From: Candidatus Saccharimonadales bacterium
GTDB lineage: Bacteria; Patescibacteriota; Saccharimonadia; Saccharimonadales; UBA7683
Direction: 5' to 3'
NCBI GenBank assembly: GCA_046350615.1
Contig: JAXMAA010000002.1
Location: 21,204 to 85,203, forward strand
Length of the DNA stretch: 64,000 nt
In this document: piece after piece, positions 1,707 to 18,790 of the stretch
Layout: the number at the start of each line of letters is the position of its first letter
How positions within the stretch are numbered: position 1 is the stretch's first letter
Position numbers and translations under genes: made by a program
The notes under the pieces: model-generated
Told to the model about the DNA's origin: nothing
The model's input: the letters and a program-made list of their open reading frames with translations, nothing else
Database searches by the model: none

Positions 1707-1782
1707 TGGTGGGGGCGGTAGGACTTGAACCTACGACCAATCAGTTATGAGCCGACTGCTCTAACCACTGAGCTACGCCCCC
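1707..1782 (-). tRNA. tRNA, anticodon CAT; body resembles tRNA-Ile2 (lysidine type), Met not excluded
   Basis: The reverse complement reads GGGGGCGTAGCTCAGTGGTTAGAGCAGTCGGCTCATAACTGATTGGTCGTAGGTTCAAGTCCTACCGCCCCCACCA. It folds as a 76-nt cloverleaf with encoded CCA and a G1-C72 pair, so it is not an initiator. The D arm, variable region and T arm resemble E. coli ileX. Confidence 0.85.
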
Positions 1783-1856
1783 TCCTCAGGATCTGCTTTG
1801 AGTTTCGGTTTCAAGATAAATTCTAGAAGCCTACGCTCTCTGCTGTCCTTCGTCTC

Positions 1857-1892
1857 AATTTAAGAAAGTCGCTATGCTCTGTTTCTTAAATT
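1857..1892 (-). promoter_or_regulatory. hairpin (11-bp A/T-rich stem, 14-nt loop) 74 nt upstream of the tRNA; member of the tRNA-CAT upstream module
   Basis: AATTTAAGAAA / TTTCTTAAATT arms. In tRNA sense the loop is CAGAGCATAGCGAC, matching 12 of 14 positions of the loop at 6972-6985. Confidence 0.6.
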
Positions 1893-2003
1893 GGTGGCTG
1901 CATTGACTGCAACAGGAGTAGTATAGTGTAGTTGATGGCATCTAGTCCATAGTTTGTAGAGATTCGTGGGTTGTGATTTCTTAAGCACCAGTCTGCCCTA
2001 GCG

Positions 2004-2031
2004 GTCATCCCGTACTTGATACGGGATCCAG
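2004..2031 (+). repeat. GTCATYC...GRATC hairpin repeat copy
   Basis: GTCATCCCGTACTTGATACGGGATCCAG, with 8-bp stem ATCCCGTA/TACGGGAT. Confidence 0.7.
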
Positions 2032-2168
2032 TAAGATAAAGATCTCTGCCTGGGACTACATCGTAAAGAAAATCATTTCTACAAAAACACTACACACTAT
2101 CAATGAACTATCTACCTTAACTATATTCTGTATAATGAGTGTATTGATAAACATAAAAGGGATGGTTA

Positions 2169-3293
2169 ATGGATCAAACTGGTGGGGGATATGCTGGAGC
2201 GCCAACCTCTGAAGGGGTTGCGAATGGTGATCCACTACACTACCTACAGTACGGCACTCAGTTAGCCATGCCAACTCAGCAACCAAACTCATTTGATATG
2301 GTTGCCGCAAACCCGTCATCTCAGCAGCAATATGCGCAACAGCCAGATCCGCTCATGCCCGCTGAGGTTCGACCAGACTGGCAACAACAAATTTATGCCG
2401 AGCTTGCCGGTAATGTGCCAGTAGGCACAAGCCAGCCCATTGCAGGGGGTCAAATTAGTAACCCCGCGCCACAGTACCAACCTCAAGTTGCACAGGTAAG
2501 TTATCCTACAAACTCCGTACCTGTATATCAGCCGACAGCACCAGTGCAACCAACGCCGGAGCATTTTCAGATTTCATACGACCAGACAACAGGAGAGCCG
2601 GTTCCTGCCCCACAGACATCAACCGCAAAAAAAGTAATTATTATAACAACCGGTATCGTATTAGTATTGAGTTTGCTTGGTGGCGTCGGCTTTGCCGCTT
2701 ATACAATGGGTAAAAATGCGGGTTACGCTGGTGGAGTTGAAGATACTAAAAAGTCGTTTGCCAGCCAGAGTAAGGATACTGACAATACGCAGAATACCAA
2801 TGACAAGGATGCAGAAAACGACAATGAACTCCTCAATTTTGAGATGGCCCAGCCGGTGTACAAGGAAGAGGCTGTTTCCGGTATTGTAGGCGAGCAGCTA
2901 CAGCTCTCAGACGGCATGGTTCTATACGTTAAAGATGTTGAACGCAATTTTCAGCCGTCAGATGCATCTTATTCGTCTATGCCCGGTGAGGAGTTGATAA
3001 AGGTAAATCTTCTGGTGGGTAATGCTGATGCAACACAATCTAAGGTAATTTCCAACGATATGTTTGGGTTACGTGATCTCTCGGGTTCGTTGGTATTGCC
3101 AAGAACCAATATAGGTAACTACGAAGGTCAAATAGATAAACTTGAAGTAAGTTCGGGAGGAAAAATCAGAATGTCACTTGTTTTCTCTGTTGAATCAGGA
3201 GCAACACCCCTTACGCTCGTTCGTCAGCAGGCCTATAACTTAAGGAGTCTTGGGCAGACGGTGAACATGAAAATAGAAGTCATCTTTGAGTAA
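2169..3293 (+). CDS. membrane-anchored hypothetical protein with DUF4352-like ectodomain
   Basis: 374 aa with a Pro/Gln-rich low-complexity N-terminus, one TM helix (IIITTGIVLVLSLLGGVGFAAY) and a beta-rich C-terminal domain (..LIKVNLLVGNADATQSKVISNDMFGLRDLSG..). An extended -10 CTGTATAAT lies about 35 nt upstream. Confidence 0.5.
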   Translation: MDQTGGGYAGAPTSEGVANGDPLHYLQYGTQLAMPTQQPNSFDMVAANPSSQQQYAQQPDPLMPAEVRPDWQQQIYAELAGNVPVGTSQPIAGGQISNPAPQYQPQVAQVSYPTNSVPVYQPTAPVQPTPEHFQISYDQTTGEPVPAPQTSTAKKVIIITTGIVLVLSLLGGVGFAAYTMGKNAGYAGGVEDTKKSFASQSKDTDNTQNTNDKDAENDNELLNFEMAQPVYKEEAVSGIVGEQLQLSDGMVLYVKDVERNFQPSDASYSSMPGEELIKVNLLVGNADATQSKVISNDMFGLRDLSGSLVLPRTNIGNYEGQIDKLEVSSGGKIRMSLVFSVESGATPLTLVRQQAYNLRSLGQTVNMKIEVIFE

Positions 3294-3371
3294 AGATTGC
3301 CTATTTGACAACATTTGGGTAGCGGTGATACGATTAAACCATAAGTGTAATAACAGGAGAAGGGTAGCGTT

Positions 3372-5903
3372 ATGCCTGATGAAGATAAACATCACGTAAA
3401 AAATGACCACGTTGTGACCGGTGGCGGTGGGTTAAAGGATAAAAAACAATTTTCGTGGGTAAAAATGAGCATGCTAGCCGTGGTGGTTGCGGTTGTCGGA
3501 GGCTTTTTTGTGTGGAATTCCTTTGCGGCTTCCGGGACACAGGGAATCATTGATACCTACTACCAAACAGTTATAGGTCAGAGTGCCGATTCGAGCGGTC
3601 TTGCTTACTGGAGTTCTAAGTACGATGCAGCAAAAGACCAAACCGCCAAGAATGCGGTGATTGAGCAACTTGTTGCAACGCTCAAGAACACCCAGGCTTA
3701 TAAAAATAAACAGGCGGCAGCTACCTCAAGCGCACCTGCTGTCTCGACAAAACCAGTTACTGGCACAAAGAACGCTACGACAAATTCTAGCCCAAGCACC
3801 TCAAGCTCTTCCACTTCGACCTCCTCAAGCTCTACCTCAACTAGCGGTTGTGTAGCAAACACTGTGGGCAACACGGCCTTCATAAAAGGTCTTTACACAA
3901 AATATCTTAAATATGCACCAGATGATGCAGGTTTAAAATACTGGGTTGATCAACTTGACACATGCGCCAAAACTTCTGCAACAGCGGAGGCATTCTTTAA
4001 GGCCAAGAGTACCGTTACTACTACAGACGGGAAAAAACCTACCGCTGCTGGTGTCAATGCTGCCGAGGGAACGCCAGGAGCAGATAACCCGTTCCCTCAA
4101 CGCAAGGATGGTGAAACTGATCGACAGTACGAACGGAGAATTGACGCATGGCTTGAAGTAGAGTTTCAAATTATGACCCAAAGTTGCTGTGGAGGATTGG
4201 CCAGTGGCACGGGGAAGGGTATGGTAAATTGGGCTGAGTTAATAAGAACTGGTAAGTGGTCACCACAACAGGTGCTCGATCACTTAAAAACACAGAGTGG
4301 ACAATCGCTTAAGCAGATGGCCATAGAAGCAAATCCTGATTCTAAGGAGGCAATTGACCAAAAAATTAAGCAGACACTGGGTTCTGCAATTATGGAGCAA
4401 GTTACAGACAGTGATATCAAGGATATCGATTATTGCCATAAAACTAAGGAGCTACTTGATAAAGGACTGCTTAAGGGTGGTATCCCTTACTACTGCATTT
4501 ACAATAGCGGTTATGGTTTTGATAACGGTGCCGAGACAGAAAGGGGCAAGACCTTGGCAGATTCGCTAATGGGTGTATCAAGCGGCACTTGGACGGCAGC
4601 TATTCAAAACGGTAAAATGACACTCGAAGAGGCTGTAGAGAGGGTAAAGAAGGGAGAGACAACAGCGAGCTGTGAAGATGTAGCAGTAATGGCCTCACTT
4701 TTCCCGTCTTGCGGTGCCGGAGGGCAGAATGTTACTCAAGCTGATCTCCAAGCAGTTGCACAACAATGTTACGGAGGAAATTTAGTTACTGGTACTCCGA
4801 GCAAGGATTGCTTCCCAAATCAACCAAGCCAGCCAACCAACGGATCAAACAAAAACACTGGAGGCACGTCACAAGCTCCTTCAAAAGATGCAGTAAACTC
4901 TAATATTCCTAACGATGCAGCAGTGGCTTCGGCTACAAATAACTCTCAGACACCACTGCAGAAAGCAAGCTCTAAGGCGAAGTCGGTTACCGGTGTTGAT
5001 AAAGCAGTGAAGGCTTGCGATAGCACTACTTGCGCGGTGTTACCACTTGGAACAGCGAAGACATCAGATATAAAGAGTGATGCAACGGTTCCCGCAGCTC
5101 CGATTTATGAAAATAATTATCCCACAGTTTCGCCCTATACAGAATCTTGGGATAACGGCGGTTCGGTAAACGCTGCCAGCACCACAATTGGTGCCACTGT
5201 TACTAATGAGAGCTCTACCATGGTTGCAGCCAGTGACGTTGCAATGTGTGTAGACCAATATGTTCCACTTAAGCAGGGAGATAAATCGGTTTGCGTGAAG
5301 GTCCTTCGCTTGTATTTAGGTCTGGTCGGTTATCTTAATGAAGAAACTGCTCAGGATGGCGCAAATGTTAGCGGCTATAACGGGCTGATGATCTTTGGAG
5401 AAGGTCTAAAAAATGCCGTCGCCAAGTACCAAAAAGATAGAGGAATGTCTAATAAATCGGGTAGTGTTGATAAGGCAACATGGCTTGATTTAAAGGATTT
5501 CGCTTCTCACGAGTACCAAAGCCAGAAGCAAGTGGCAAGCGACATTCAAGTTGCTGCTGCAGTTGGTGATGAGTTGCAGCAACAGGAGTTTGCCCGCCTT
5601 TTTGATAAGTGCAAAAACAGCGTGGTTCTCGACAAAAGCGACGGCATGGATGCTGGAGAGCGAGAGTGCGTAAAACGGTTGCAGCAAATTCTTGCATTTG
5701 TTCAAGATGCAACACTGTCGATTACCGGACAGTTCGATGCCGCAACTCAAAATGCGGTAACTCGCTTTAAAGCTATGAGGGGCCTGCGAGGTACTCCAGT
5801 TGTAGATAAACAAACTTGGGAGCTCCTTGAAGCAGCAAAACAAGTGAGTCCATATCAATCACCGTACCAGGCAGGAAGCGGTAACCTGGCAAGTGCATAT
5901 TAG
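3372..5903 (+). CDS. secreted/cell-wall-associated protein: 2x DUF4214, Ser-rich linker, 2x C-terminal peptidoglycan-binding (PG_binding_1-like) domains
   Basis: 843 aa with an N-terminal signal anchor. DUF4214 signatures are YYQTVIGQSADSSGLAYW and LYTKYLKYAPDDAGLKYW. Two C-terminal PGB-like units are present (..VKVLRLYLGLVGYL..DKATWLDL and ..VKRLQQILAF..VDKQTWELL). Confidence 0.6.
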   Translation: MPDEDKHHVKNDHVVTGGGGLKDKKQFSWVKMSMLAVVVAVVGGFFVWNSFAASGTQGIIDTYYQTVIGQSADSSGLAYWSSKYDAAKDQTAKNAVIEQLVATLKNTQAYKNKQAAATSSAPAVSTKPVTGTKNATTNSSPSTSSSSTSTSSSSTSTSGCVANTVGNTAFIKGLYTKYLKYAPDDAGLKYWVDQLDTCAKTSATAEAFFKAKSTVTTTDGKKPTAAGVNAAEGTPGADNPFPQRKDGETDRQYERRIDAWLEVEFQIMTQSCCGGLASGTGKGMVNWAELIRTGKWSPQQVLDHLKTQSGQSLKQMAIEANPDSKEAIDQKIKQTLGSAIMEQVTDSDIKDIDYCHKTKELLDKGLLKGGIPYYCIYNSGYGFDNGAETERGKTLADSLMGVSSGTWTAAIQNGKMTLEEAVERVKKGETTASCEDVAVMASLFPSCGAGGQNVTQADLQAVAQQCYGGNLVTGTPSKDCFPNQPSQPTNGSNKNTGGTSQAPSKDAVNSNIPNDAAVASATNNSQTPLQKASSKAKSVTGVDKAVKACDSTTCAVLPLGTAKTSDIKSDATVPAAPIYENNYPTVSPYTESWDNGGSVNAASTTIGATVTNESSTMVAASDVAMCVDQYVPLKQGDKSVCVKVLRLYLGLVGYLNEETAQDGANVSGYNGLMIFGEGLKNAVAKYQKDRGMSNKSGSVDKATWLDLKDFASHEYQSQKQVASDIQVAAAVGDELQQQEFARLFDKCKNSVVLDKSDGMDAGERECVKRLQQILAFVQDATLSITGQFDAATQNAVTRFKAMRGLRGTPVVDKQTWELLEAAKQVSPYQSPYQAGSGNLASAY

Positions 5904-5939
5904 AGAAGTGTAATTATTAGAATAAGGAGTAATAGTACA

Positions 5940-6380
5940 ATGGACATAAAACGTATCGTGGGTGGGGTTATAGCAGTGGTGGTGCTGGTACTTACAGGAG
6001 TCGTAAGCTATAAATACGGTACCAAAAAGGTAGTAGTTGAAAACTCAGATGGTGTTGCAAAACAAGCCGCAGCAGATTTTGTTGATGCTCTTGTGAAGGG
6101 CGATGTTGATAAAACATACGAGTTCGGAACTACTGCATACCAGGCAAAGAACACAAAAGAACGCGTAAAGGCAATTTCTGATAGCTTAAAATCTGACCAG
6201 CCGCAAATATCTAATGAGGAGATATTCTTTGGTAAAGATCAGGCAACTAATCAGGCTATATACTTAAGCTCCGTTGGTAATCTTCCAGCTAATACCTATG
6301 GTCGTACTACAGGAAACTTTGTGATACGTCTTGTTGTTCAAAATGGAACATGGAAAGTCGATAGCTCACAAGTATTCTAA
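5940..6380 (+). CDS. hypothetical membrane-anchored protein
   Basis: 146 aa with an N-terminal TM helix and an SD AAGGAG upstream. It is followed by a terminator. Confidence 0.5.
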   Translation: MDIKRIVGGVIAVVVLVLTGVVSYKYGTKKVVVENSDGVAKQAAADFVDALVKGDVDKTYEFGTTAYQAKNTKERVKAISDSLKSDQPQISNEEIFFGKDQATNQAIYLSSVGNLPANTYGRTTGNFVIRLVVQNGTWKVDSSQVF

Positions 6381-6403
6381 TAAGTAGCTAGATATACAAA
6401 CAC

Positions 6404-6430
6404 AAAAGTCGGGTTATATGCCCGACTTTT
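6404..6430 (+). terminator. intrinsic terminator hairpin
   Basis: AAAAGTCGGG ttatatg CCCGACTTTT. Confidence 0.6.
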
Positions 6431-6474
6431 ATTGTGCGTGATACAATTAGTGAGAGGATATAATAAACAGAAAC

Positions 6475-6903
6475 ATGCAGCTTCAACTGAACAAATATTT
6501 TAGTTTTAATGACTTCTTACTAGTCGCTGCATTATTGATTGCACTTGGTCTTGTCTGGAATACAATTTCCGCCATGCAACGAAATTATCGGCTGCAGCAG
6601 AAGTATGACCAGCTTTCCGCTGAAGTTGAATTGCAGGAGCTGGAAAACCAAAATCTTCGCTACAATATTGAGTACCTTAAAACTGATGATTATAAAGAGC
6701 TTGCTGCCCGAGATAAATTTAACAAAGCACTGCCGGGTGAGCATATGGTGTATTTGCCAAACAACGCAGCAGCAACACTGGCACCTGTTGCCAAAAAAAC
6801 AGAAAAACAACAGAAGGTTGAACAAAAAGGATGGCAGGCCAACGTAAAAGCTTGGTGGCGGTTCCTGCAGGGCAAAGATACTATTCGTACCACAGCAACT
6901 TGA
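6475..6903 (+). CDS. septum formation initiator family protein (FtsB/DivIC-like)
   Basis: 142 aa with an N-terminal TM helix, then a coiled coil and the motif ..LQELENQNLRYNIEYLKTDDYKELAARDKFN... Confidence 0.75.
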   Translation: MQLQLNKYFSFNDFLLVAALLIALGLVWNTISAMQRNYRLQQKYDQLSAEVELQELENQNLRYNIEYLKTDDYKELAARDKFNKALPGEHMVYLPNNAAATLAPVAKKTEKQQKVEQKGWQANVKAWWRFLQGKDTIRTTAT

Positions 6904-6959
6904 AACAAAATTTATAATCTGTTACACTACATACTTGTTCGTTCATAAGCGCTCAAGAC

Positions 6960-6997
6960 CAATTCAAAAAACAAAGCGTAGCGACTTTTTTGAATTG
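6960..6997 (+). promoter_or_regulatory. hairpin (12-bp stem, 14-nt loop) of the tRNA-CAT upstream module
   Basis: CAATTCAAAAAA caaagcgtagcgac TTTTTTGAATTG. It lies 77 nt upstream of the tRNA-like fragment at 7075. Confidence 0.6.
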
Positions 6998-7074
6998 AGA
7001 AGGAGGAAGTGCGGCGAGTGAAAGCCTTTAAAGTTTACTTTGAAGCTGAAACTTACAACGGCTTCCGACGCCGA

Positions 7075-7098
7075 CGCGCGGTGGAGCAGTGACAGCTC
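7075..7098 (+). pseudogene. 5' fragment of a tRNA-fMet-like gene (acceptor 5' strand + D arm only)
   Basis: CGCGCGGTGGAGCAGTGACAGCTC differs at 2 of 24 nt from the real tRNA start CGCGGGGTGGAGCAGTGGCAGCTC. No anticodon or T arm follows. Confidence 0.6.
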
Positions 7099-7176
7099 AT
7101 CTGGAATCAATCGCTCATACACAATGAGCCAACCAGAAAAAACGTCATGTACATTTCACAAAAAGTTACAAGACAA

Positions 7177-7251
7177 CGCGGGGTGGAGCAGTGGCAGCTC
7201 GCTTGGCTCATAACCAAGAGGTCGCAGGTTCAAGTCCTGCCCCCGCTACCA
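7177..7251 (+). tRNA. initiator tRNA-fMet (CAT)
   Basis: CGCGGGGTGGAGCAGTGGCAGCTCGCTTGGCTCATAACCAAGAGGTCGCAGGTTCAAGTCCTGCCCCCGCTACCA. It is close to E. coli tRNA-fMet and has an unpaired position 1-72 (C-T), the initiator hallmark. CCA is encoded. Confidence 0.88.
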
Positions 7252-7372
7252 AGAAAAGAGTCTCACAAAGAGTGGGGCTTTTTTCTTGGTAGTTTGCCTA
7301 CGATACGCTGCCATGGCAATTTACCCTACGGAGGGCAGTACGCTTTTTTGTCTGGTGTGTATACTGGTAGTC

Positions 7373-7966
7373 ATGAATAATGTATATTTTCCACTCAAAG
7401 TAGAGTTCAAAAAGATTGCACTTACCAACAAAATGACGGTAACGGATGCTAACGGTACAGTTGTGGCGTTTGCGCATCAGAAGCTGTTGAAGCTTAAAGA
7501 GCAGATTTTGCTTTATGCTGATACAAATAAAACGCAGCCAATTGGTGAAATACGAGCCGATAGGGTAATAGACTTCTCACCACTTTTTGTGTACCAAGAT
7601 CAAAGCGGTTCTATACAGTTGGCTATTAAGCGCAATGGTCGGCGTTCTATTCTTAAGGCTGATTACGATATTCTCAACGCAGCACAGCAGCCGGTATACA
7701 AGGTAAGAGAAGATAACGGTTGGATCAAGTTTTTTGATGCAATAGTTGGTGAATTGCCGATTATTGGAATTTTTACCGGCTACTTTCTTAACCCAAAATA
7801 CAACGTAACAAATTTACAGGGTGAATTGGTGGCACGTTTTATTAAGCGCCCTTCTCTTCTAGAGAGTAGCTACGAAATTGAGGTGAGTAATACTGCTGAC
7901 CAAAATATTGGATTGCTGCCGATTGCTTCGCTCGCTGTTCTTAGCCGCGAGCGACTGCGTGGCTAG
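7373..7966 (+). CDS. hypothetical protein, tentatively LURP-one-related/tubby-C-like (DUF567) fold
   Basis: The start was moved to ATG 7373 because the longer ORF overlaps the tRNA terminator. A TATACT box at 7360-7365 lies 7 nt upstream. The pattern of short beta strands resembles the LOR family only loosely. Confidence 0.35.
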   Translation: MNNVYFPLKVEFKKIALTNKMTVTDANGTVVAFAHQKLLKLKEQILLYADTNKTQPIGEIRADRVIDFSPLFVYQDQSGSIQLAIKRNGRRSILKADYDILNAAQQPVYKVREDNGWIKFFDAIVGELPIIGIFTGYFLNPKYNVTNLQGELVARFIKRPSLLESSYEIEVSNTADQNIGLLPIASLAVLSRERLRG

Positions 7967-8075
7967 TCGCTGAATATCGTCGGATTTCTTGGGAGCTTTG
8001 AGGCTGGGGTAGACATGGGCATTTAAATTGTATATGCTTATTATGATTTATAAAAAATAAACAAGTATAAGTTGT

Positions 8076-10823
8076 ATGGTAAAACGTCTTAGCACAAAGT
8101 GCGATCACAACATCAGTACGAAACAAACGAAAAAAGGCACATCTTTGGAGCCTGATGAGACGAAGATAGATTTATCGAGCATTAACAAGCCTGATGTGAA
8201 GGGAAAAGAATCACCAAAGTTCAAAATTTCTCTTTCAAATCCGTTCAAAAAACAAGACCGTAAGCGAGATAGGCAGGGTAGATTCGCAGCTATTGGATCT
8301 GGTGGCCTGCGTTCACTACGTGGTATTAATTTGAAACGAACTCTGCCAGTTATTATTGTCGTCTCATTGGTAGGCGGGTTTTTGGTATACCAAAGTTTCG
8401 CCGCCTCAAGTGCGAGTAAGAGTGAGGTTACCGAGTGGTATCGTACCTGTTTGAATCGCGAGCCAGACTCCGGTGGACTTGATTATTGGGCTGACCAACT
8501 TGATAAAAATCCGAATGCAACATGGTCAATCGCCGATAAATTTATGAAAACAGCGAAAGTTACAAGCTGTAATTACGCAAATACACCTAAAAACACCACC
8601 AGTACAACTACTACTATACAACAGCCCGCCTCAACATCAAATTCCTCTAGTTCGTCATCTTCGTCTTCATCATCGAGCACGGGTTCGAGCTCTTCAACGG
8701 CGGCAACTAAGGTTTCTTGCTCTGCCAAAGAGATGAGTGGCAAGTATGTGCTTCAGTGGACTACCGTCACCACTCAGTGGCTCTGGAAGGTGCGCATCGC
8801 AGAAAAAGATGGCTCGGTACTGGCTCGTGATTTGGAGTTGAATCGTGATGATAAATCAAATCCGTCTAGTTGGCCTGTCCCCTATCAAAAGAGTACGAAA
8901 ACGTATAGAATAAGCGTGTATAACCCAGAGAATGGGCCAGACTCGAAAGAACAGGCTGCGGCAGAATGTACGGTAACGGTAAAAGAGGATCAACCTACAT
9001 CAACAAACGCTAGCTCTAGCTCAAATACTAAACCAGTTGAACAGGTAAACGAAGCCGATAAGGCGTGGCTTATTACCCAGTATCAAGAGATTTTGGGGCG
9101 ATCTCCAAGCAAGATTGATCCAGCAGGATTTCAATACTGGCTTAATCGTCTGAAAACCGAATCACGTGATTCAGTAAAAAAAGCACTTGCTAATACGGCC
9201 GAAGCAAAAAAATGGGCAGCACTTAATCAACAGGCTGGTTCTAGCAATAACTCTTCGAGCTCTTCATCGAGTCAGTCCAGCGGCCAAACCAGTCAGAATA
9301 CTGGTGGCAGCACTGGATCGAGTGTTGTAAATACTGACCCGGCAAATTCGGAAGATGAGGCATGGCTTCGAACCCAATACCACGAGTTGCTCTGTCGCCC
9401 AGACGATAAAATTACCCAGAATGATCTTAAATACTGGCTCGATAGACTCAGTAAAAAAGAATCACGTGATTCAGTAAAAAAAGCACTTGCAAGCACGTCG
9501 GAAGCTATTCGTTGCGCAGATTCAAAAAGCCCTGCAACCGATGAGACGTGGGTGAGGGCGCAGTACTATGATGTACTTTGTCGGCCACTGAACAAAATTG
9601 ATTCAGATGGCTTTAAATACTGGCTCGATAGATTAAAAACTGAATCACGTAGCTCTGTAAAGCAAGCAATGTTGAATACGGCAGAAGGGAAGAAGTGTGC
9701 CGAGTCAAAGAACCCTGCTAGCTCTTCCCAGTCGCAATCTCAATCACAATCCCAACAGTCTGAACAAAATACTGAACCGAACCCACATGTTTGCACATCT
9801 CCATATCCAACGCTCAAGCGCAACGACAAAAACACCTCTGCGGCTCGAAAAGACGAGTGTGTTTCAGCGGTGCAGTATAACCTCAAGAAAGGCGCAAACG
9901 ACCTTTCAGTGACGGGCACGGTTGATGATAAGACCGTGAGTGCGATTCAAAACTTCCAGAAGTTCTTTCAGCTTTCAGTAACTGGCACGCTGACCCCACA
10001 GCAGGTAGAGAGTATCGCTACTATTTGGGGTCCATATGCGAGCACAGAGGAAGATGAAGAGGCGAATACCCGAGTGAGTGGCGAGGGTAAGCTTGATATT
10101 GTATTCATGGGCGATGGCGTAAGTGACGATGCGGTGGAAAGTGCTGCATCGCGACTTGGTCCGGCTTTGTATAATTTTCCGCCGTATTCTCAGTATAAGG
10201 ATAGAATCGCTATTCATACCATTACTGAAAAGCCAGACTGTACCGACACACCGGTCGATACGTTAGATGGTCCATATAATTCGGTAAGTTGTGATGTGGC
10301 TCAGGCAGCAACAGCAAGCGGCGTCCCAGCAGATAAAGTGGTGATTATCTCAAGCAGCGTCGGGAGGGAGCATGCGGGCGGAAGTAGCATGTCTATATCT
10401 CCTTCGACATCCACTTCAACATTTTTGCACGAGATGGGACATGTAATGGGATTGGCTGATGAATATCATGGATACAGTGATGGGCAGTGGGGTGAGTACT
10501 CTCTCACGACGTACGGTCAGTGCATTACGGCGACAGAATCAAGCGATACTAATATGTTCTTTGATGGTGGTTGGAAGGACGTCGAAGGCCCGTGGTCTGC
10601 TTGGGCTAATCTTGGAGGCGTTGATTGGAATCGTGAATGTAGTGATACAAGGTGGTTAAGACCTTCAGCGGATAGTATTATGCGCAGTGGCTACGGGTTC
10701 TATAACTCTGTCTCCGAATTTATCGTAAAGAACGAACTTGATCGGGTTACGACTGGTACTGAGAGTACTTTGCCTGGTTACGGTAACACGGGGAGTGACG
10801 CTGGCGGAATATTTTCAAAGTAG
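8076..10823 (+). CDS. secreted multidomain protein: 4x DUF4214, Ser-rich linkers, PG-binding-like domain, C-terminal M64-like zinc metallopeptidase
   Basis: 915 aa with a signal anchor. DUF4214 units have the form W(L/V)xxQYxxxLxRxxxxxDxxGxxYWLxRL. A PGB-like unit is ECVSAVQYNL..TGTLTPQQV. The HEXXH motif HEMGHVMGLADEY matches the M64 (IgA-peptidase-like) signature HEfGHsfggLaDEY. Confidence 0.65.
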   Translation: MVKRLSTKCDHNISTKQTKKGTSLEPDETKIDLSSINKPDVKGKESPKFKISLSNPFKKQDRKRDRQGRFAAIGSGGLRSLRGINLKRTLPVIIVVSLVGGFLVYQSFAASSASKSEVTEWYRTCLNREPDSGGLDYWADQLDKNPNATWSIADKFMKTAKVTSCNYANTPKNTTSTTTTIQQPASTSNSSSSSSSSSSSSTGSSSSTAATKVSCSAKEMSGKYVLQWTTVTTQWLWKVRIAEKDGSVLARDLELNRDDKSNPSSWPVPYQKSTKTYRISVYNPENGPDSKEQAAAECTVTVKEDQPTSTNASSSSNTKPVEQVNEADKAWLITQYQEILGRSPSKIDPAGFQYWLNRLKTESRDSVKKALANTAEAKKWAALNQQAGSSNNSSSSSSSQSSGQTSQNTGGSTGSSVVNTDPANSEDEAWLRTQYHELLCRPDDKITQNDLKYWLDRLSKKESRDSVKKALASTSEAIRCADSKSPATDETWVRAQYYDVLCRPLNKIDSDGFKYWLDRLKTESRSSVKQAMLNTAEGKKCAESKNPASSSQSQSQSQSQQSEQNTEPNPHVCTSPYPTLKRNDKNTSAARKDECVSAVQYNLKKGANDLSVTGTVDDKTVSAIQNFQKFFQLSVTGTLTPQQVESIATIWGPYASTEEDEEANTRVSGEGKLDIVFMGDGVSDDAVESAASRLGPALYNFPPYSQYKDRIAIHTITEKPDCTDTPVDTLDGPYNSVSCDVAQAATASGVPADKVVIISSSVGREHAGGSSMSISPSTSTSTFLHEMGHVMGLADEYHGYSDGQWGEYSLTTYGQCITATESSDTNMFFDGGWKDVEGPWSAWANLGGVDWNRECSDTRWLRPSADSIMRSGYGFYNSVSEFIVKNELDRVTTGTESTLPGYGNTGSDAGGIFSK

Positions 10824-10826
10824 GAG

Positions 10827-11390
10827 ATGAATATGACACGTAAAAAAGTAGTTATACTAACAGGAACGCTCATAGTACTTACGTGTGCGGTGGTTGCAAC
10901 TGTTCTTCTCTACAATAAGCACAAGAACGATCCCGAAGATACAGCCTACAAAAATCTACAAACAGTTACAATTCCTGATGATGCCAACAAAACGCAGAAG
11001 GTGCTCCTCTTTACTTTTGAAGTAGGTAATTCTGTTGATTCGATGCAGCTAAAATCTATCGATCAATATAATTCGCATGCAGATATTCCTAACACGAGAG
11101 AGAACCAGTACAACTTTAGCGTGACTGAAGAAGGTAACCCAGTATACTTAAGCTATTTTGATATCCCAATTACAACTGTTGAGGATTTCTCAGAACAAGG
11201 AAAAATTAAAACAGTTGACATTGTCAAAGAGAAGAAACTAGCCTTTAAAACCCCGAGATTTACTGATGGGGCGGTGTTTACGATACGGAATAAAACAGGC
11301 AAGGTGTTGGTGCGTGACACCATTAAAAACGTGGCTACTCACGAAAATAAAACTCAGTTCAATACGCTTATTGCCGACCCGCGTTTGTAA
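10827..11390 (+). CDS. hypothetical membrane-anchored protein
   Basis: 187 aa with an N-terminal TM helix. It starts 4 nt after the stop of the peptidase gene, so it is probably co-transcribed. Confidence 0.5.
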   Translation: MNMTRKKVVILTGTLIVLTCAVVATVLLYNKHKNDPEDTAYKNLQTVTIPDDANKTQKVLLFTFEVGNSVDSMQLKSIDQYNSHADIPNTRENQYNFSVTEEGNPVYLSYFDIPITTVEDFSEQGKIKTVDIVKEKKLAFKTPRFTDGAVFTIRNKTGKVLVRDTIKNVATHENKTQFNTLIADPRL

Positions 11391-11554
11391 AACTATTCTC
11401 CACTATTCTTTTTACGAGAGTAGCGGTACGCTACTATACTCATTGCAAGCACGGAGACTGCTATGCAGATAACAGTGAGCTTTGTTGAAAGAGTATGAAC
11501 TGGGGTGTGATGTGCGAATAGTTGTATCATAACAATCAGTATACATCGAGACAC

Positions 11555-11581
11555 AAAAAGAGGTCAAAAAGACCTCTTTTT
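11555..11581. terminator. bidirectional intrinsic terminator
   Basis: AAAAAGAGGTC aaaaa GACCTCTTTTT lies between convergent genes. Confidence 0.75.
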
Positions 11582-11599
11582 GTATGAATAGTATTTAAA

Positions 11600-11914
11600 C
11601 TACCATTCGCGCTGACGGAATGAGCCGCCATTGCCGCCGCCGTTGAAATCACGACGAGGGCGATCCTCTTGAGGACGAGCTTCGTTAACCGTAAGTGTAC
11701 GGCCACCAAGATCAGATCCATTGAGGGCTTTTTCAGCTGCTTTACCTTCATCTTCGTTCTCAAATTCTACAAAGCCGAAGCCCTTAGAACGTTGAGTTTC
11801 ACGATCGGTAATAACACGAGCTGACGCAACCGTACCATGAGCAGCAAAAAGCTGTTCAAGTTCTTCACTGGTTGTGGAGAATGGTAGGCCGCCTACGAAA
11901 AGTCGATATGCCAT
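11600..11914 (-). CDS. RNA-binding protein (single RRM)
   Basis: RNP-2 LFVGGL, RNP-1 KGFGFVEF, and a Gly/Arg-rich tail. Confidence 0.9.
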   Translation of the reverse strand: MAYRLFVGGLPFSTTSEELEQLFAAHGTVASARVITDRETQRSKGFGFVEFENEDEGKAAEKALNGSDLGGRTLTVNEARPQEDRPRRDFNGGGNGGSFRQREW

Positions 11915-12063
11915 TTAGTGTATGTATCCTTTGTTTAACTACTGCAGTTCGACCATGTAACGTAACTAAGGTGCTGATGTAACCAACGAACCATACACGT
12001 ACTGACTGCTGAGCCTCAGTATAAAACAATTCAAATATTTTTGCGAGCATAAGCTCTTTGATT

Positions 12064-13455
12064 TCAAGAGTTTGACTTAGCAAGCTGTAGGCAGGCAACG
12101 CGAATCGTCTCTGACCACGATGGAAAGACATGAACGGTGCGCGCAAGCTGCGAGGCGCTCAGGTAGGTGCTCACAGCTAGGCTTAGTTGTTGAATAAGCT
12201 CGCTGGCATGCGGACTTACAATAGTTCCGCCCAGTATCACATCACTTTTTGGGTCAGCCAGTATTTTCACAAACCCATCACTAAAGTTAGCAATATTTGC
12301 CTTAGAAATAACCGAAAGCGGAACACCGACACTTTTATACGAAATGCCCTGTGCTTTGAGTACCGCTTCAGTTGGTCCAACAGCAGCAATTTCTGGCTGT
12401 ACAAAATAGGCTCGTGGTACAATGCGATCCTCAAACATAAGCCGTCGCCGAGGATGGAGTAAGTTATAGGCCACCAACTGGCTCTGGTATGTAGCTATAT
12501 GAGTAAAAGCAGTGCCAACGCAGCCACCGGCAGCATATATGTGCTGCGCACTTGTTTGCAAGAATGAGTTAGTGCGTATCTTCTCAGATTGATACTCAAC
12601 ACCGGCATTTTCAAGCCCGATATCGGTAACTGCTTGATGCGCCGTGGCAATGAGCAGTTCGTCTACTACAAGCGTTGTCTCCTTGCCTTTCTGCGAGATC
12701 TGCAGCCGTTTAGTTGCCCCAATGGCAATGATTTTAGTTGGGGTTGTCTCGAGATGAATATCTACCGAATACTGATTCGCAAGCGAGGCGCTTAGAGCTT
12801 CGGATACTTCAGGCTCTTCATGTGCAAGCAATCTTGCGGCACTCTCAATAAAATAGACCTTCGTTCCAAATGTGCCAAAGAGCTCCGCTAGTTCGTAGCT
12901 TAAAGGACTACCGCCAAGAATAGCGAGACGCTTTGGTGGCCGAGTGAGTGCAAGTGCTTCTCGGGTAGTAAGATACCCAGCAGTCGCTAAGCCAGGAATA
13001 TCTGGTATCTGTTGCTCAGATCCAGTGGCAATTAAAAATTTATCTGCACTCAGACGAGCTTTCCCAATTGTAACCATGTGCGGATCAATAAAGTGCGCTC
13101 GCCCATAAGTAAGCGTGATGCCCATGGCGCTTAAAGAATCGACCGCTCTTGGCAATCCCGCTCTACGAATTACTGTATCCTTCCATGCTTTAACGGTAGG
13201 ATAATTGTACCCAACTGTGGTGCCGCGAATACCAAACGTATCGCTATTGCGTGCTATACGGTACGCAGTTGCGGCCTCCAGAAGGGCACTCGTTGGTAAT
13301 CGTCCGCTTCTTGCATCGCTGCCCCCAAACTCTTCAGCCTCGATTATCGCTACTTTTTTACCCACTTTCGCGAGTTGCTGGGCAGCAATAATACCGCCGG
13401 CACCACTCCCGATGACAATCAGATCATAATCGTACGAAGCCATATTGGTCCTCAT
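12064..13455 (-). CDS. class I pyridine nucleotide-disulfide oxidoreductase homolog (dihydrolipoyl dehydrogenase-like) lacking the redox CXXXXC
   Basis: FAD site DLIVIGSGAGG and NAD site LAILGGSPLSYELA are present. The C-terminal dimerisation region has H..E (HVFPSWSE). The expected GGTCLNxGCIPSK reads GGSDARSGRLPTS. ATG 13443 is an alternative start. Confidence 0.7.
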   Translation of the reverse strand: MRTNMASYDYDLIVIGSGAGGIIAAQQLAKVGKKVAIIEAEEFGGSDARSGRLPTSALLEAATAYRIARNSDTFGIRGTTVGYNYPTVKAWKDTVIRRAGLPRAVDSLSAMGITLTYGRAHFIDPHMVTIGKARLSADKFLIATGSEQQIPDIPGLATAGYLTTREALALTRPPKRLAILGGSPLSYELAELFGTFGTKVYFIESAARLLAHEEPEVSEALSASLANQYSVDIHLETTPTKIIAIGATKRLQISQKGKETTLVVDELLIATAHQAVTDIGLENAGVEYQSEKIRTNSFLQTSAQHIYAAGGCVGTAFTHIATYQSQLVAYNLLHPRRRLMFEDRIVPRAYFVQPEIAAVGPTEAVLKAQGISYKSVGVPLSVISKANIANFSDGFVKILADPKSDVILGGTIVSPHASELIQQLSLAVSTYLSASQLARTVHVFPSWSETIRVACLQLAKSNS

Positions 13456-13804
13456 GTACTTCGTATTCTTTCACCGGTAGATAGGCATATGCAGCTCTGG
13501 GGTTGTATTTATGAAGTGCTGCAGCGGCCCTCCTCTTAATATCCGCACTTGTGACTTCTTCTTTGTTGATTAACCAAGTTTCAACCTCTCTGCATACTTT
13601 AAGTGCAGTCAGCTCTGCTTCGCCAGCAAACCCAAATGCTTTCATACAGGCTTCATGGATACTCTCCGCTAATATATGGGGCTCAAAACCACTTGTGTGA
13701 GTTGCAGAAACAACCCGCTTTGTACTTGCTCTATCAGCAAAAGCATCGTGCCAGTGGGTCGAGAATAATGGTGTCTGTTTTGGGGTTCGTTTTATGTGAA
13801 ACAT
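13424..13804 (-). CDS. small hypothetical protein, ATP-cone-like (tentative)
   Basis: 126 aa. Its C-terminal half (..EVTSADIKRRAAAALHKYNPRAAYAY..) resembles the end of ATP-cone domains. It overlaps the downstream gene by about 30 nt. Confidence 0.35.
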   Translation of the reverse strand: MFHIKRTPKQTPLFSTHWHDAFADRASTKRVVSATHTSGFEPHILAESIHEACMKAFGFAGEAELTALKVCREVETWLINKEEVTSADIKRRAAAALHKYNPRAAYAYLPVKEYEVHEDQYGFVRL

Positions 13805-13951
13805 ACATCTTGTTTATGCTTAATACTACTATACGCTCTCAAGATCTCGATAGCAAATATTGCGGCCTGATAAAACTACCCAAGCCGCTAGCTTATTGGT
13901 GTGTCATCTTGTGCCTTTCGAAAGATCTGGCCAATCGGTTGCATATGCGCT

Positions 13952-13999
13952 AGATCCTTCCTTCTTCGCTGGAGCTACGGTGGACAGGCTCAGGGTGAC
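13952..13999 (-). repeat. long variant of the GTCAYCC...GGATC repeat
   Basis: The reverse complement is GTCACCCTGAGCCTGTCCACCGTAGCTCCAGCGAAGAAGGAAGGATCT. Its core is similar to 24670-24737. Confidence 0.6.
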
Positions 14000-14031
14000 A
14001 AGTGAGATAATGATTTACATATAAAACTATA

Positions 14032-14060
14032 TTGACAAATAATAAAGCTTATGCTAATAT
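14032..14060 (+). promoter_or_regulatory. near-consensus promoter TTGACA-17 nt-TGcTAATAT
   Basis: TTGACA at 14032-14037, a 17-nt spacer, and TAATAT at 14055-14060 with a TG extension. Confidence 0.65.
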
Positions 14061-14119
14061 GAGAGTGTTGTTTAAAAATAAACAGCAAAATAAAAACTAA
14101 AGAGGAGTGCCTACCCAAT

Positions 14120-14215
14120 ATGAGTAAGCCAAAAAAGATTGTAGTGAAGTACATCGAGAGCAAAGCCTCGATTAATACACTTACATCATCAAAACTCACT
14201 AGTGTAACAGAGTAA
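14120..14215 (+). CDS. 31-codon small ORF (MSKPKKIVVKYIESKASINTLTSSKLTSVTE); could instead be a non-coding RNA
   Basis: It lies between the promoter at 14032 and the terminator at 14231. AGAGGAG sits 12 nt upstream of the ATG, which is a long spacing. It is below the ORF-track length cutoff. Confidence 0.35.
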   Translation: MSKPKKIVVKYIESKASINTLTSSKLTSVTE

Positions 14216-14230
14216 AATCTGTTATCATTA

Positions 14231-14267
14231 AGATCGCATTTCGGCCCAGCCAATCTGCGATCTTTTT
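14231..14267 (+). terminator. intrinsic terminator
   Basis: AGATCGCA ...17 nt... TGCGATCT followed by TTTT. Confidence 0.6.
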
Positions 14268-14335
14268 GTTGAGAGTACATCTTAATTAAGTTGGCAAGAG
14301 TCATTCTTGTTTACCACTTGTTGATTGTTCTAAAC

Positions 14336-14375
14336 CAGTTTTTCAAACCAAGACAGCGATCTGTTTGGAAAACTG
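14336..14375 (+). promoter_or_regulatory. hairpin (13-bp stem, 14-nt loop) of the tRNA-CAT upstream module
   Basis: CAGTTTTTCAAAC caagacagcgatct GTTTGGAAAACTG (12/13 paired). It lies 74 nt upstream of the tRNA. Confidence 0.6.
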
Positions 14376-14449
14376 AAAGGAAGAAGCAATGGAAAGTGGC
14401 AGCGATTCAAAATCTTGAACTTGCGAAAACTTGTAATTGATTCTGACGA

Positions 14450-14526
14450 GGCAGCGTAGCTCAGTTGGTTAGAGCGTAGGACTCATAAGCCTAAGGTCAC
14501 TGGTTCAATTCCAGTCGCTGCTACCA
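14450..14526 (+). tRNA. elongator tRNA-Met (CAT)
   Basis: GGCAGCGTAGCTCAGTTGGTTAGAGCGTAGGACTCATAAGCCTAAGGTCACTGGTTCAATTCCAGTCGCTGCTACCA. It closely resembles E. coli elongator tRNA-Met (GGCTACGTAGCTCAGTTGGTTAGAGC...GGTCAC.GGTTC). Confidence 0.85.
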
Positions 14527-16893: not shown

Positions 16894-17791
16894 AATTAGC
16901 CATATACTTTCATCCTCACAGTTTTTGGAGCCAGCATTTGTAGATGAGATTATTGAGTTGGCTCGAGCGTATAAAGCTGAGCCGCTTCGTAAAAAGCCGC
17001 TCACCGGTATGCGGGTCGCAACGTTGTTTTATGAACCAAGTACCAGAACAAGACTTTCTTTTGAGTCGGCTGCGGTTGCACTTGGTGCGGATGTTGTAAG
17101 TACCGAAAGCGCTGGCGTATACTCTTCAGCCGCCAAGGGTGAGACGCTGGAAGATACTATACGAACGGTGCAGGGCTATGTTGATGCTATCGTGCTTCGG
17201 TATTACGAAAAGGGCGGTGCAGAGCGTGCGGCTGCAGTCTCCGGTGTGCCAATTATTAATGCAGGTGATGGTCCCGGTGAGCATCCTACTCAAGCGCTCT
17301 TGGACCTTTTTACAATCAGAGAGCTTAAACAGGATGTCGATAGTTTAAAAATTGGTTTAGTCGGCGATCTTAAGAATGGGCGCACCGTTCACTCGCTTGC
17401 TGGTTTGCTCGGTAGTCTGCATCCTGCCATGAGAATTGTAGGCGTTGCTCCGCAATCACTACAGCTGCAGTCTGGGTATGCCCCGCATGGTCTTCAGCGT
17501 GCTACGTACCTAGAAGATGTTATAGGTGATCTAGACATTATTTATATGACGCGAATACAAAAAGAGCGCTTTAGCTCACCAGAAGAGTACGAGTCACTAA
17601 AAGATAGCTTCATTCTTGACGGTAATCTTATGAAACGAGCAAAAGCTTCAGCGATTGTTATGCACCCTTTGCCGCGAGTTGGTGAGATTGCAGCCGAAGT
17701 TGATGATGACACACGGGCGATTTACTTTCAACAGGCTCACAATGGCTTGTTTGTTCGGATGGCACTTCTTGAGCACGTGCTTACTCATTAA
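16886..17791 (+). CDS. pyrB: aspartate carbamoyltransferase catalytic subunit
   Basis: Motifs STRTRLSFE, HPTQALLD and HPLPR are present. The start was set at ATG 16886 (MTRISHILS..). Confidence 0.9.
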   Translation: MTRISHILSSSQFLEPAFVDEIIELARAYKAEPLRKKPLTGMRVATLFYEPSTRTRLSFESAAVALGADVVSTESAGVYSSAAKGETLEDTIRTVQGYVDAIVLRYYEKGGAERAAAVSGVPIINAGDGPGEHPTQALLDLFTIRELKQDVDSLKIGLVGDLKNGRTVHSLAGLLGSLHPAMRIVGVAPQSLQLQSGYAPHGLQRATYLEDVIGDLDIIYMTRIQKERFSSPEEYESLKDSFILDGNLMKRAKASAIVMHPLPRVGEIAAEVDDDTRAIYFQQAHNGLFVRMALLEHVLTH

Positions 17792-17818: not shown

Positions 17819-18790
17819 ATGTGTGAAGAGTCAAGACAGTACGTTATCGCAGTGAGTGGTGGAGTGGATTCCGTGGTGCTACTTGATGCGCTAGTGCATA
17901 ACCGTCTTCATGAATTAACGAATCACGAATCACGAATCACGAATCACGAGCTCATTGTGGCACACTTTGACCATGGAATTCGACCAGATTCGGCTGAGGA
18001 TGCGGAGTGGGTGAGGGCCTTGGCTGCAGGCTACGGATTGGAGTATGTATCTGAACGAGTTGAGCTTGGCTTAGGCGCAAGCGAGTCGGCTGCTCGCCAG
18101 ATGCGCTATAATTTTTTGCGACAAACTTGCAAAAAGCATAATGCACTTTTAATAACTGCACATCACCAAGATGACGTTATTGAAACGATAATCATCAACC
18201 TGATTCGTGGGACTGGTTGGCGTGGTTTGGCGCCTATGGCTGTTAAGATCTCAGATCTTAGATCTCAGATCATAGATTCCCAATCACCAACCATTCTCCG
18301 GCCGCTGATTGGCGTGAGTAAGGCGCAGATTTTAGAGTATGCAAAGAAGTATCAATTACAGTGGCGAGAAGACAGTACCAATGCAAATGAAAAATATCTC
18401 AGAAATTATGTTCGACGTTCGTTATTACCAGCTGTGCATGCAAAAAACCCAGCCGCCAAGCAGCAGTTACTTGAGCTAAATGCAAATGTGGTGGGGTTAA
18501 GATATGAAATTGCGACAGAATTGCAAAAAATAATTGCTTACTATCAACTATCAACTATCAACTACCAACTACCAAGATACTTCCTCATTATGATTCCAGC
18601 TATGGTTGCCCAGGAGATTCTCTACCACATAATCGCAGAGCTTGTACCAGATTGGCACCCTGAGCGCCGAGCAATACTGGGAATGCTCCATTTTGTTAAA
18701 ACAGGACTACCGCGTAAAACATACCAACTTCATCGAAGCCTTGAAGTTTCGCTGACCGAAGGCCAAGTTTGGTTTAAAAAAGTGCCATAA
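17819..18790 (+). CDS. tilS: tRNA(Ile)-lysidine synthase
   Basis: A PP-loop SGGVDS lies at the N-terminus, with ..HFDHGIR.. and ..TAHHQDD.. motifs. The gene contains three heptamer-repeat tracts. Confidence 0.85.
   Translation: MCEESRQYVIAVSGGVDSVVLLDALVHNRLHELTNHESRITNHELIVAHFDHGIRPDSAEDAEWVRALAAGYGLEYVSERVELGLGASESAARQMRYNFLRQTCKKHNALLITAHHQDDVIETIIINLIRGTGWRGLAPMAVKISDLRSQIIDSQSPTILRPLIGVSKAQILEYAKKYQLQWREDSTNANEKYLRNYVRRSLLPAVHAKNPAAKQQLLELNANVVGLRYEIATELQKIIAYYQLSTINYQLPRYFLIMIPAMVAQEILYHIIAELVPDWHPERRAILGMLHFVKTGLPRKTYQLHRSLEVSLTEGQVWFKKVP
17918..17949 (+). repeat. heptanucleotide tandem repeat ACGAATC x4.5 inside tilS
   Basis: Read directly from the sequence. It encodes TNHESRITNHE. 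Confidence 0.9.
18247..18281 (+). repeat. heptanucleotide tandem repeat AGATCTC-like x5 inside tilS
   Basis: AGATCTC AGATCTT AGATCTC AGATCAT AGATTCC. Confidence 0.85.
18541..18575 (+). repeat. heptanucleotide tandem repeat CTATCAA x3 / CTACCAA x2 inside tilS
   Basis: Read directly from the sequence. It encodes YQLSTINYQLP. Confidence 0.9.

Follow-up and report, generated by a model that had tools for sequence, protein, structure and literature searches.

Do tRNA genes that share an anticodon also share an upstream element? The question is raised by a 64,000-nucleotide stretch of Candidatus Saccharimonadales DNA (contig JAXMAA010000002.1 of assembly GCA_046350615.1, positions 21,204 to 85,203; hereafter the window), in which an initial annotation, made from the letters alone, had noted the same A/T-rich hairpin and spacer upstream of all three tRNAs with a CAT anticodon, and had proposed shared regulation or processing, or a recently spread cassette. 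We find that these modules are members of a lineage-specific RNA family, made up of structured domains that occupy, in one clade of Candidatus Saccharibacteria, the place of a pre-tRNA 5' leader or of an inter-tRNA spacer. As for their role, we favor, with a probability of about 50%, a cis-acting leader domain that would protect and organize the 5' side of the precursor and set the presentation of the cleavage site.

The resemblance of the three modules was assessed with a hidden Markov model (HMM) built from non-window homologues only and run over the 64 kb. It returned 6959-7071 (E=3.4e-22), 1786-1894 (E=6.3e-18) and 14338-14448 (E=2.2e-5), with the next match at E about 5; the three look-alike modules are therefore real, their likeness is above chance, and no fourth copy was detected in the window by this HMM. 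A covariance-model scan of the whole window, with filters off, found no fourth copy either (next best E=0.25), in agreement with the reported lack of a module at tRNA-Lys (49474; called, like the CAT tRNAs, by ARAGORN and Rfam); since this model was trained partly on the window copies, it tests exclusivity only. The stem of 11 to 13 bp and the loop of exactly 14 nt described at each copy were recovered as well: the stems measure 12, 12 and 13 bp in copies 1, 2 and 3 (at tRNA-Ile2, in the fMet region and at tRNA-Met, respectively), and the loops are CAGAGCATAGCGAC (1868-1881), CAAAGCGTAGCGAC (6972-6985) and CAAGACAGCGATCT (14349-14362). The spacers from the hairpin to a tRNA 5' end are, in the same order, 73/74, 77 and 74 nt. 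All three copies adopt one two-domain fold, the z-scores against dinucleotide shuffles being -2.5, -2.7 and -3.6. Structure-guided identity reaches 72% between the Ile2 and fMet copies, and 45% and 50% for the other two pairs.

The module is about 113 nt long and consists of a hairpin, P1, followed after a purine linker of 3 to 4 nt by a rod, P2-P4. P1 has 12 to 13 bp and a conserved 14-nt loop, which reads CAAAGC-NNN-GCGAC in type A copies and folds further in type B copies (AGA/UCU or AGG/CCU around CAGCGA). Copy 3 is of type B, its apical part pairing AGA with UCU, and the same type occurs at tRNA-Met of the relative L007 and in L008, where AGG/CCU represents a compensatory change. The rod opens with G-GA-P2...P2'-GA-C, that is, tandem G·A mismatches between G-C pairs, continues through P2b, P3 and a purine-rich 3x3 internal loop to the terminal hairpin P4 (CUUUU...AAAAC), and ends 2 nt (5 nt in some copies) before tRNA +1. 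The G-GA...GA-C arrangement is present in about 15 of 20 copies, as counted by eye on secondary-structure predictions, and the 3' GA of the closing helix is at least 90% conserved; copy 1 carries a degenerate AA/UG variant of the tandem mismatch. The sequence blocks GAAGGA, TTTAnnTTGAA and TCYGASG, initially described as shared stretches of the spacer, are indeed present and can now be read as helix strands: the first and the last pair with each other as the closing helix, which holds the tandem G·A, and the middle one is hairpin P4. When 21 sequences were folded singly, all but that of L059 displayed the common architecture (read by eye). Furthermore, when whole precursors are folded, the module and the cloverleaf form side by side and do not disturb each other.

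Pairing and covariation were counted on an alignment of 22 members, realigned by the covariance model. Paired cells amount to 85%, versus 69% in shuffles and 36-56% with slid partners; double changes occur in 28 of the 34 pairs, and none of 500 shuffles reaches any of the five measures. P1 is the best supported element, with 98% of its cells paired and compensatory changes in 9 of 12 pairs, and its covariation also emerged from RNAalifold on a plain MAFFT alignment, which recovered P1 only, the remainder requiring single-sequence folds and realignment guided by the covariance model. For P2, covariation is visible in the raw sequences (GGAAU/AUUCC, GGAGU/ACUCC, GGUGU/ACACC, GUGAU/AUCAC, AGAAAU/AUUUCU). 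The G·U pairs set the functional strand as that of the tRNA; together with the compensatory changes in the stem, they argue for RNA and against a DNA palindrome bound by a dimeric regulator. As judged from comparative analysis, this covariation shows that selection acts on the RNA fold of the module.

The family is apparently undescribed. At gathering thresholds, the 4227 covariance models of Rfam 15 matched nothing but the four tRNAs over the whole window, and under permissive settings (E<=10 for the three modules, E<=1 for three metagenomic copies) the modules were overlapped only by noise below 20 bits. Likewise, in our literature searches we came across no account of a structured motif in tRNA leaders, whether of Saccharibacteria or of other organisms.

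Is the module tied to the CAT anticodon? Relatives were obtained by scanning a genome collection with an alignment of the divIC/ftsB-like gene of the window (6475-6903), whose homologues, together with one neighbouring protein, carry the name Candidatus Saccharibacteria. The scan yielded 48 loci, nearly all Saccharibacteria by title; four records have other Patescibacteria names, such as Nomurabacteria, and one locus is 99% identical to the window. Ile2-like, fMet and Met CAT tRNAs are grouped around divIC/ftsB in all 48 genomes fetched; of the 140 tRNAs called in these sequences and the window taken together, 139 are CAT tRNAs. The window record of three CAT tRNAs out of three with a module, and tRNA-Lys without, thus gave a seeming specificity because this conserved cluster dominates that part of the window.

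In the relatives, covariance-model matches range from 46 to 115 bits, two of them lying outside the training set (L012, 67.7 bits; L072, 92 bits). Among the closer relatives, with divIC 59-79% identical, presence is patchy. At tRNA-Ile2 the module is found in L007, L010, L012 and, with a different 3' half, L011; L006 keeps the 3' half only, the module is absent in L008, L013, L014, L015, L016 and L018, and the tRNA is not in the locus of L017. At tRNA-fMet it is present in L008, L010 and L014 and absent in L006, L007, L011, L012, L013, L015, L017 and L018, this tRNA falling outside the locus of L016. At tRNA-Met it is present in L007 and absent in L008, and for the other ten this tRNA is not in the locus. 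A covariance-model scan of 37 Nanosynbacter-like genomes found no module.

Conversely, the module occurs at tRNAs with other anticodons. Searching metagenomes for the type A loop pattern returned 13 loci, of which 11 carry a full module directly before a tRNA, one is cut by the contig end and one is a chance match. The tRNAs that follow are Leu(GAG), Thr(CGT), Ala(TGC) twice, Arg(TCG), Ser(GGA) twice, fMet, Arg(CCT) twice, from near-identical contigs, and Ser(GCT). Two of these loci were checked by gene content: L064 is assigned to Saccharibacteria through the names of its proteins, and in L065 the Ile2-divIC-fMet arrangement is found. In addition, L072, fetched through a neighbouring protein and not by the pattern, has its copy ending exactly at tRNA-Ser(GCT), and in the syntenic L074 the module is absent at both Ser tRNAs. 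The presence of the module before Leu, Thr, Ala, Arg (two anticodons) and Ser (two anticodons) tRNAs rules out a CAT-anticodon regulon. That it serves the regulation or processing of the three CAT tRNAs only, as the window alone had invited one to think, is hence hardly credible, with at least seven non-CAT tRNA species preceded by the module and many relatives, including the Nanosynbacter-like ones, lacking it at one or more CAT tRNAs.

The loop itself shows no match to the anticodon beyond chance. The triplets AUA, at Ile2, and AUG, in two of the fMet copies, had looked suggestive; across the family, a complement to the anticodon of the tRNA that follows occurs in the P1 loop of 6 of 21 copies, versus 4.5 expected by permutation (P=0.15; P1 loop only), which argues against the CAT link as well as against a T-box specifier. 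The module does resemble T-boxes in being a structured leader with a functional tie to tRNAs and in having G·A-containing helices at the foot of a long stem. However, a T-box precedes aminoacyl-tRNA synthetase or amino-acid genes, reads a specifier codon and switches a terminator, whereas here the downstream gene is the tRNA itself: all complete copies stand before a tRNA or a tRNA relic and none before synthetase or amino-acid genes, there is no Rfam T-box match, and no terminator lies between module and tRNA. Indeed, the 21 distinct complete copies all end 2-5 nt before the tRNA or, in the case of copy 2, before the relic.

Copy 2 deserves separate mention, as its neighbour bears on how the copies move. 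The module in the fMet region is genuine, and it adjoins a decayed fMet fragment (7075-7135) rather than the intact gene at 7177. This fragment retains the acceptor 5' strand, the D-arm and a disrupted anticodon arm with a 9-nt insertion; it has lost the 3' half, matches the intact gene at 27 of its first 30 nt and is not called as a tRNA. The intact tRNA-fMet lies 102 nt beyond the end of copy 2, and the sequence between relic and gene (7136-7176) looks like the fMet leader of L007, which is short and has no module. This suggests that a cassette of module plus tRNA-fMet was partly duplicated or inserted upstream of a module-less fMet gene, and copy 2 seems to have arrived with the tRNA-fMet gene whose remnant it adjoins.

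More generally, module similarity does not track tRNA identity. The L010-Ile2 copy is nearest to a Ser(GGA) copy (80% identical), the L011-Ile2 copy is 81% identical to an Ala copy, and the window Met copy is nearest to the fMet copy of L008. Truncated or variant forms also exist, namely the 3' half in L006, the L011 variant and a 67-nt short form in L060 (1235-1301), which is made of P1 and one hairpin closed by G·A (GUCCGC/GCGGAC), stands immediately ahead of tRNA-Ala and possibly defines the minimal core. Similarity across tRNA identities, the fMet remnant at copy 2 and the truncated forms together indicate that copies have probably been exchanged, gained and lost by recombination, in addition to the selection that acts on the fold. 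The spreading cassette suggested at the outset therefore holds as to spread, given the patchy presence and the unlinked similarities, and fails as to recency: at 45-72% identity, the window copies are not recent duplicates.

The same observations could describe a DNA repeat, selfish or neutral, that moves by recombination from one tRNA upstream region to another and does nothing for the cell, a view that patchiness at orthologous tRNAs, similarity unlinked to tRNA identity, partial deletions and the partial duplication at copy 2 would all suit. We consider it improbable: compensatory substitutions keep four helices over 45-80% sequence divergence, which implies selection on RNA, and the roughly 1.3 Mb searched held no module other than at a tRNA 5' end. 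A miniature inverted-repeat transposable element or a repetitive extragenic palindromic-type repeat was rejected accordingly, as the covariance model placed every copy at a tRNA 5' end, both in the window (filters off) and across some 1.2 Mb of loci. Moreover, comparison of module-bearing with module-less orthologous leaders revealed neither terminal inverted repeats nor target-site duplications at the module borders.

The position of the module relative to promoters was then considered. Of 22 copies, 14 have the motif TGNTANNNT at a distance of 16-52 nt upstream of P1, and plain -10 boxes were read by eye upstream of five further copies. The Ile2 box TGgTATACT is kept in L007, L011, L012, L008, L013 and L014, module present or not; extended -10 boxes (ATCTGnTAnnnT or TGgTATACT) are in general kept whether or not a module follows, and the same promoters precede short leaders in species without it. 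A small hairpin just after the Ile2 promoter (GUUGCA-N5-UGCAGC) is also kept in Ile2 leaders with and without the module. Because promoter-like boxes are kept upstream regardless of the module, the latter would lie inside the transcribed leader and should be transcribed as part of the pre-tRNA 5' leader; its location, between promoter and tRNA +1 on the tRNA strand, is that of a pre-tRNA leader. In L058, the module is instead a spacer between tRNA-His and tRNA-Leu, without a promoter. The extended -10 motif ATCTGnTAnnnT is common to the tRNA promoters of the clade (window 6917-6928 and most module-bearing loci) and may serve as a Saccharibacteria promoter signature.

Upstream of tRNA-Met, the promoter-like ATCTGnTAnnAT is immediately followed by a 9-bp hairpin, AAGAUCGCA/UGCGAUCUU, and then by UUUUUGUUGAGAG. 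This promoter-hairpin unit is common to three species (window, 14217-14270; L007, about 18530-18585; L008, about 17610-17670), and the three-species alignment displays two compensatory changes in the hairpin stem. In L007 the module follows the unit, with no other promoter-like site, and 14217-14270 is the probable start of the transcript carrying copy 3, as far as comparative evidence goes. The hairpin between promoter and tRNA looks like a terminator or an attenuator and is independent of the module.

Two stem-loops close to a promoter, with a terminator-like hairpin upstream of the module in the tRNA-Met unit, could also point to an RNA polymerase-directed element, the nascent two-hairpin RNA acting in pausing or antitermination and shielding untranslated tRNA transcripts. 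Like rRNA leaders (boxB-boxA-boxC) and HK022 put, the modules are promoter-proximal, hairpin-bearing nascent RNAs of untranslated stable-RNA operons. Unlike them, they are strictly coupled to the tRNA 5' end and lack boxA: allowing up to two mismatches, GCTCTTTAACAA had 8 matches versus 8.25 expected, none in or near a module, and boxA antitermination was rejected. Furthermore, the tRNA units are short and mostly have no terminator on the way from module to tRNA, the constant distance of 2 nt to tRNA +1 is left unexplained, and the L058 module is an internal spacer well downstream of any promoter; we hold an action on RNA polymerase to be unlikely.

In the cis-acting leader reading that we prefer, the module would be co-transcribed with the tRNA, would fold independently of the cloverleaf and would act as a compact, nuclease-resistant 5' domain. 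It would prevent mispairing between leader and tRNA and set the presentation of the -1/+1 junction to RNase P, whose cleavage would remove it in one piece. Single copies would be dispensable and could be gained, lost, truncated or swapped between tRNA genes by recombination. As for the shared regulation or processing proposed in the initial annotation, the selected fold and the position between the -10 boxes and the tRNA 5' end fit such a role; the restriction to CAT tRNAs has to be abandoned.

Several points weigh against a cis-acting leader domain. The starts of transcription, the cleavage by RNase P and the stability of the leader are predictions; covariation was counted on an alignment that had been fitted to the structure of the model; and the metagenome sample, being retrieved by a loop pattern, is biased to type A copies. 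In E. coli and B. subtilis, the protein subunit of RNase P binds a single-stranded leader, and on that basis a helix stopping just 2 nt short of the cleavage site should impede cleavage instead of promoting it. Moreover, the conserved unpaired bases (CAAAGC..GCGAC in the loop and GA/GA in the rod) suggest a specific partner, which a passive leader would not need, and dispensability at any tRNA, combined with multi-copy status, fits a trans-acting product at least as well. It is possible, though we say so tentatively, that the RNA domain controls tRNA 5' maturation, with the G·A-closed helix gating RNase P until a factor binds the P1 loop or the G·A mismatches, or that it is a small RNA or ribonucleoprotein made by tRNA punctuation. 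Gated access of RNase P would make tRNA maturation regulated rather than constitutive.

Taken on its own, the second of these options has the excised module of about 113 nt as the product, a multi-copy small RNA or ribonucleoprotein scaffold whose 3' end would be made by tRNA punctuation and which would act in trans, for instance by binding or titrating a protein by means of the conserved P1 loop and the G·A motifs. Besides the conserved unpaired nucleotides and the dispensability of any one copy, both of which it would explain better than the leader reading does, it would account for the several diverged copies per genome, which keep the fold and not the helix sequences, for the precise 3' end that a fixed tRNA junction would give, and for the spacer position in L058. 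Precedents are known. With the E. coli 3'ETS-leuZ and metZWV spacer sponges, and with the stable RNAs C and D from the tRNA cluster of phage T4, tRNA-processing enzymes cut a piece other than a tRNA out of a tRNA transcript, and that piece has, or may have, a function in its own right. Those RNAs are single-locus, with base-pairing action or unknown function, and we know of no multi-copy structured family 5' of many tRNAs among them; they share no sequence or structure similarity with the module, and no Rfam match. Type A and type B loops differ, so that no seed or site is common to all copies, no candidate partner gene is consistently nearby, and truncated forms persist beside tRNAs. A free small RNA is the main rival of the leader reading and, in our judgment, less likely than it.

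Other candidate identities were examined, and none was supported. Small self-cleaving ribozymes (hammerhead, twister, pistol, hatchet and hepatitis delta virus-like) gave no Rfam match at E<=10; the hammerhead-like CUGANGA/GAAA has an incompatible order and spacing, and the CUGANGA-like string is present in two window copies only, the family consensus being CCGACG. The GA/GA loop does not fit a kink-turn, as it is symmetric, with Watson-Crick pairs directly on both sides and no three-nucleotide bulge. P1 is A/U-rich, has a 14-nt loop, is followed by AGAGG and was not called by a terminator scan, which argues against an intrinsic terminator or attenuator, and the lack of a U-tract on either strand excludes a terminator of the upstream genes. 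The AGGAGG-like block, taken as a Shine-Dalgarno sequence with a leader peptide, is a strand of the G-GA/GA-C helix in which only GGA is conserved, and no start codon or open reading frame (ORF) common to the copies was seen by eye. An 'ACCA' before P1 that could evoke a tRNA remnant is the base of P1 (C-A...U-G), and no acceptor- or T-arm-like sequence lies upstream. Two pattern scans of viral contigs gave chance matches only, with no module or tRNA, so a phage origin was set aside. Finally, as regards a linked RNA-binding protein, the ORF at 13990-14304, beside copy 3, is not the RNA recognition motif protein of the relatives, and neighbouring ORFs have no Pfam match.

Features of the window attached to the three module copies (positions within the 64,000-nt stretch)
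Feature	Position	Strand	Basis or remark
-10-like box TATACT of the tRNA-Ile2 unit (promoter of copy 1)	1920..1925	-	Promoter scan; inferred start
Small 5'-proximal hairpin GUUGCA-GUCAA-UGCAGC of the basal Ile2 leader, outside the module	1897..1913	-	Minimum free energy fold of whole precursor
Copy 1 P1, 12-bp A/U-rich stem, 14-nt loop CAGAGCAUAGCGAC (1868-1881)	1856..1893	-	Fold and family alignment
Copy 1 domain 2, rod P2-P2b-P3-P4, ending 2 nt before tRNA +1	1785..1852	-	Folds and alignment
tRNA(CAT), Ile2-like, served by copy 1	1707..1782	-	ARAGORN, Rfam; precursor folds as module plus cloverleaf, independent domains
Promoter-like TTGAAA-17-TGtTACACT (extended -10), upstream of copy 2	6900..6928	+	Promoter scan
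Copy 2 P1, 12-bp stem, loop CAAAGCGUAGCGAC (6972-6985)	6960..6997	+	Fold and alignment
Copy 2 domain 2: closing helix G-GA-GGAAGU...GCUUCC-GA-C, P3, P4 hairpin CUUUAAAG-UUUA-CUUUGAAG; followed by 5-nt tail GCCGA	7002..7069	+	
Decayed 5' part of tRNA-fMet gene, adjoined by copy 2	7075..7135	+	Alignment with intact gene
Intact tRNA-fMet	7177..7251	+	ARAGORN, Rfam
Promoter-like ATCTGtTATCAT, then hairpin AAGAUCGCA...UGCGAUCUU and U-tract, upstream of tRNA-Met	14217..14270	+	
Copy 3 P1 (type B), 13-bp stem	14336..14375	+	Fold; loop of the initial annotation, 14349-14362
Copy 3 domain 2: G-GA-AGAAGCAAU...AUUGAUUCU-GA-C, P3, P4 hairpin UUCAA-AAUC-UUGAA	14379..14447	+	Ends 2 nt before tRNA +1
Elongator tRNA-Met served by copy 3	14450..14526	+	ARAGORN, Rfam, precursor fold

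The surroundings of the CAT-tRNA cluster offer a few further observations. In L007 and L008, divIC is directly flanked by tRNA-Ile2(-) and tRNA-fMet(+), and in the window about 4.6 kb is inserted between the Ile2 and fMet genes (ORFs at 2169-6380, DUF4352 and peptidoglycan-binding-like). L008, a 988-kb Saccharibacteria contig, also harbors at 3254-4156 a 300-amino-acid reverse-transcriptase (RVT_1) gene adjoining a Mur ligase gene, with no apparent link to the module. In L066, a tRNA-like match at 590-661 (28.6 bits; gathering score, 29) directly follows a tRNA-Ala(TGC)-tRNA-Ile(GAT) pair and may be a further tRNA, the third in the row, that has diverged or decayed.

The leader of a pre-tRNA is usually regarded as disposable sequence without conservation, and ordinary leaders are, to our knowledge, short, unconserved and gene-specific. 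The module shares their place, between a promoter or an upstream tRNA and tRNA +1, and presumably their release by RNase P; it differs in being one covarying fold of about 113 nt, reused at 10 or more tRNA species and across species, with a junction of 2-5 nt. Bacteria of the candidate phyla radiation (CPR), of which the present lineage is a member, retain RNase P RNA, in diverged forms (PMC8172020), and the module provides a concrete substrate on which to test CPR RNase P with structured leaders. The covariance model and consensus structure define a new RNA family that can be used to annotate Saccharibacteria genomes, and the tempting inference of a CAT-anticodon regulon gives way to a module more general than the CAT tRNAs. 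A folded domain reused before at least 10 tRNA species, in an uncultured lineage with reduced genomes, may point to an unrecognised layer of tRNA biogenesis, stability or small-RNA function in CPR bacteria.

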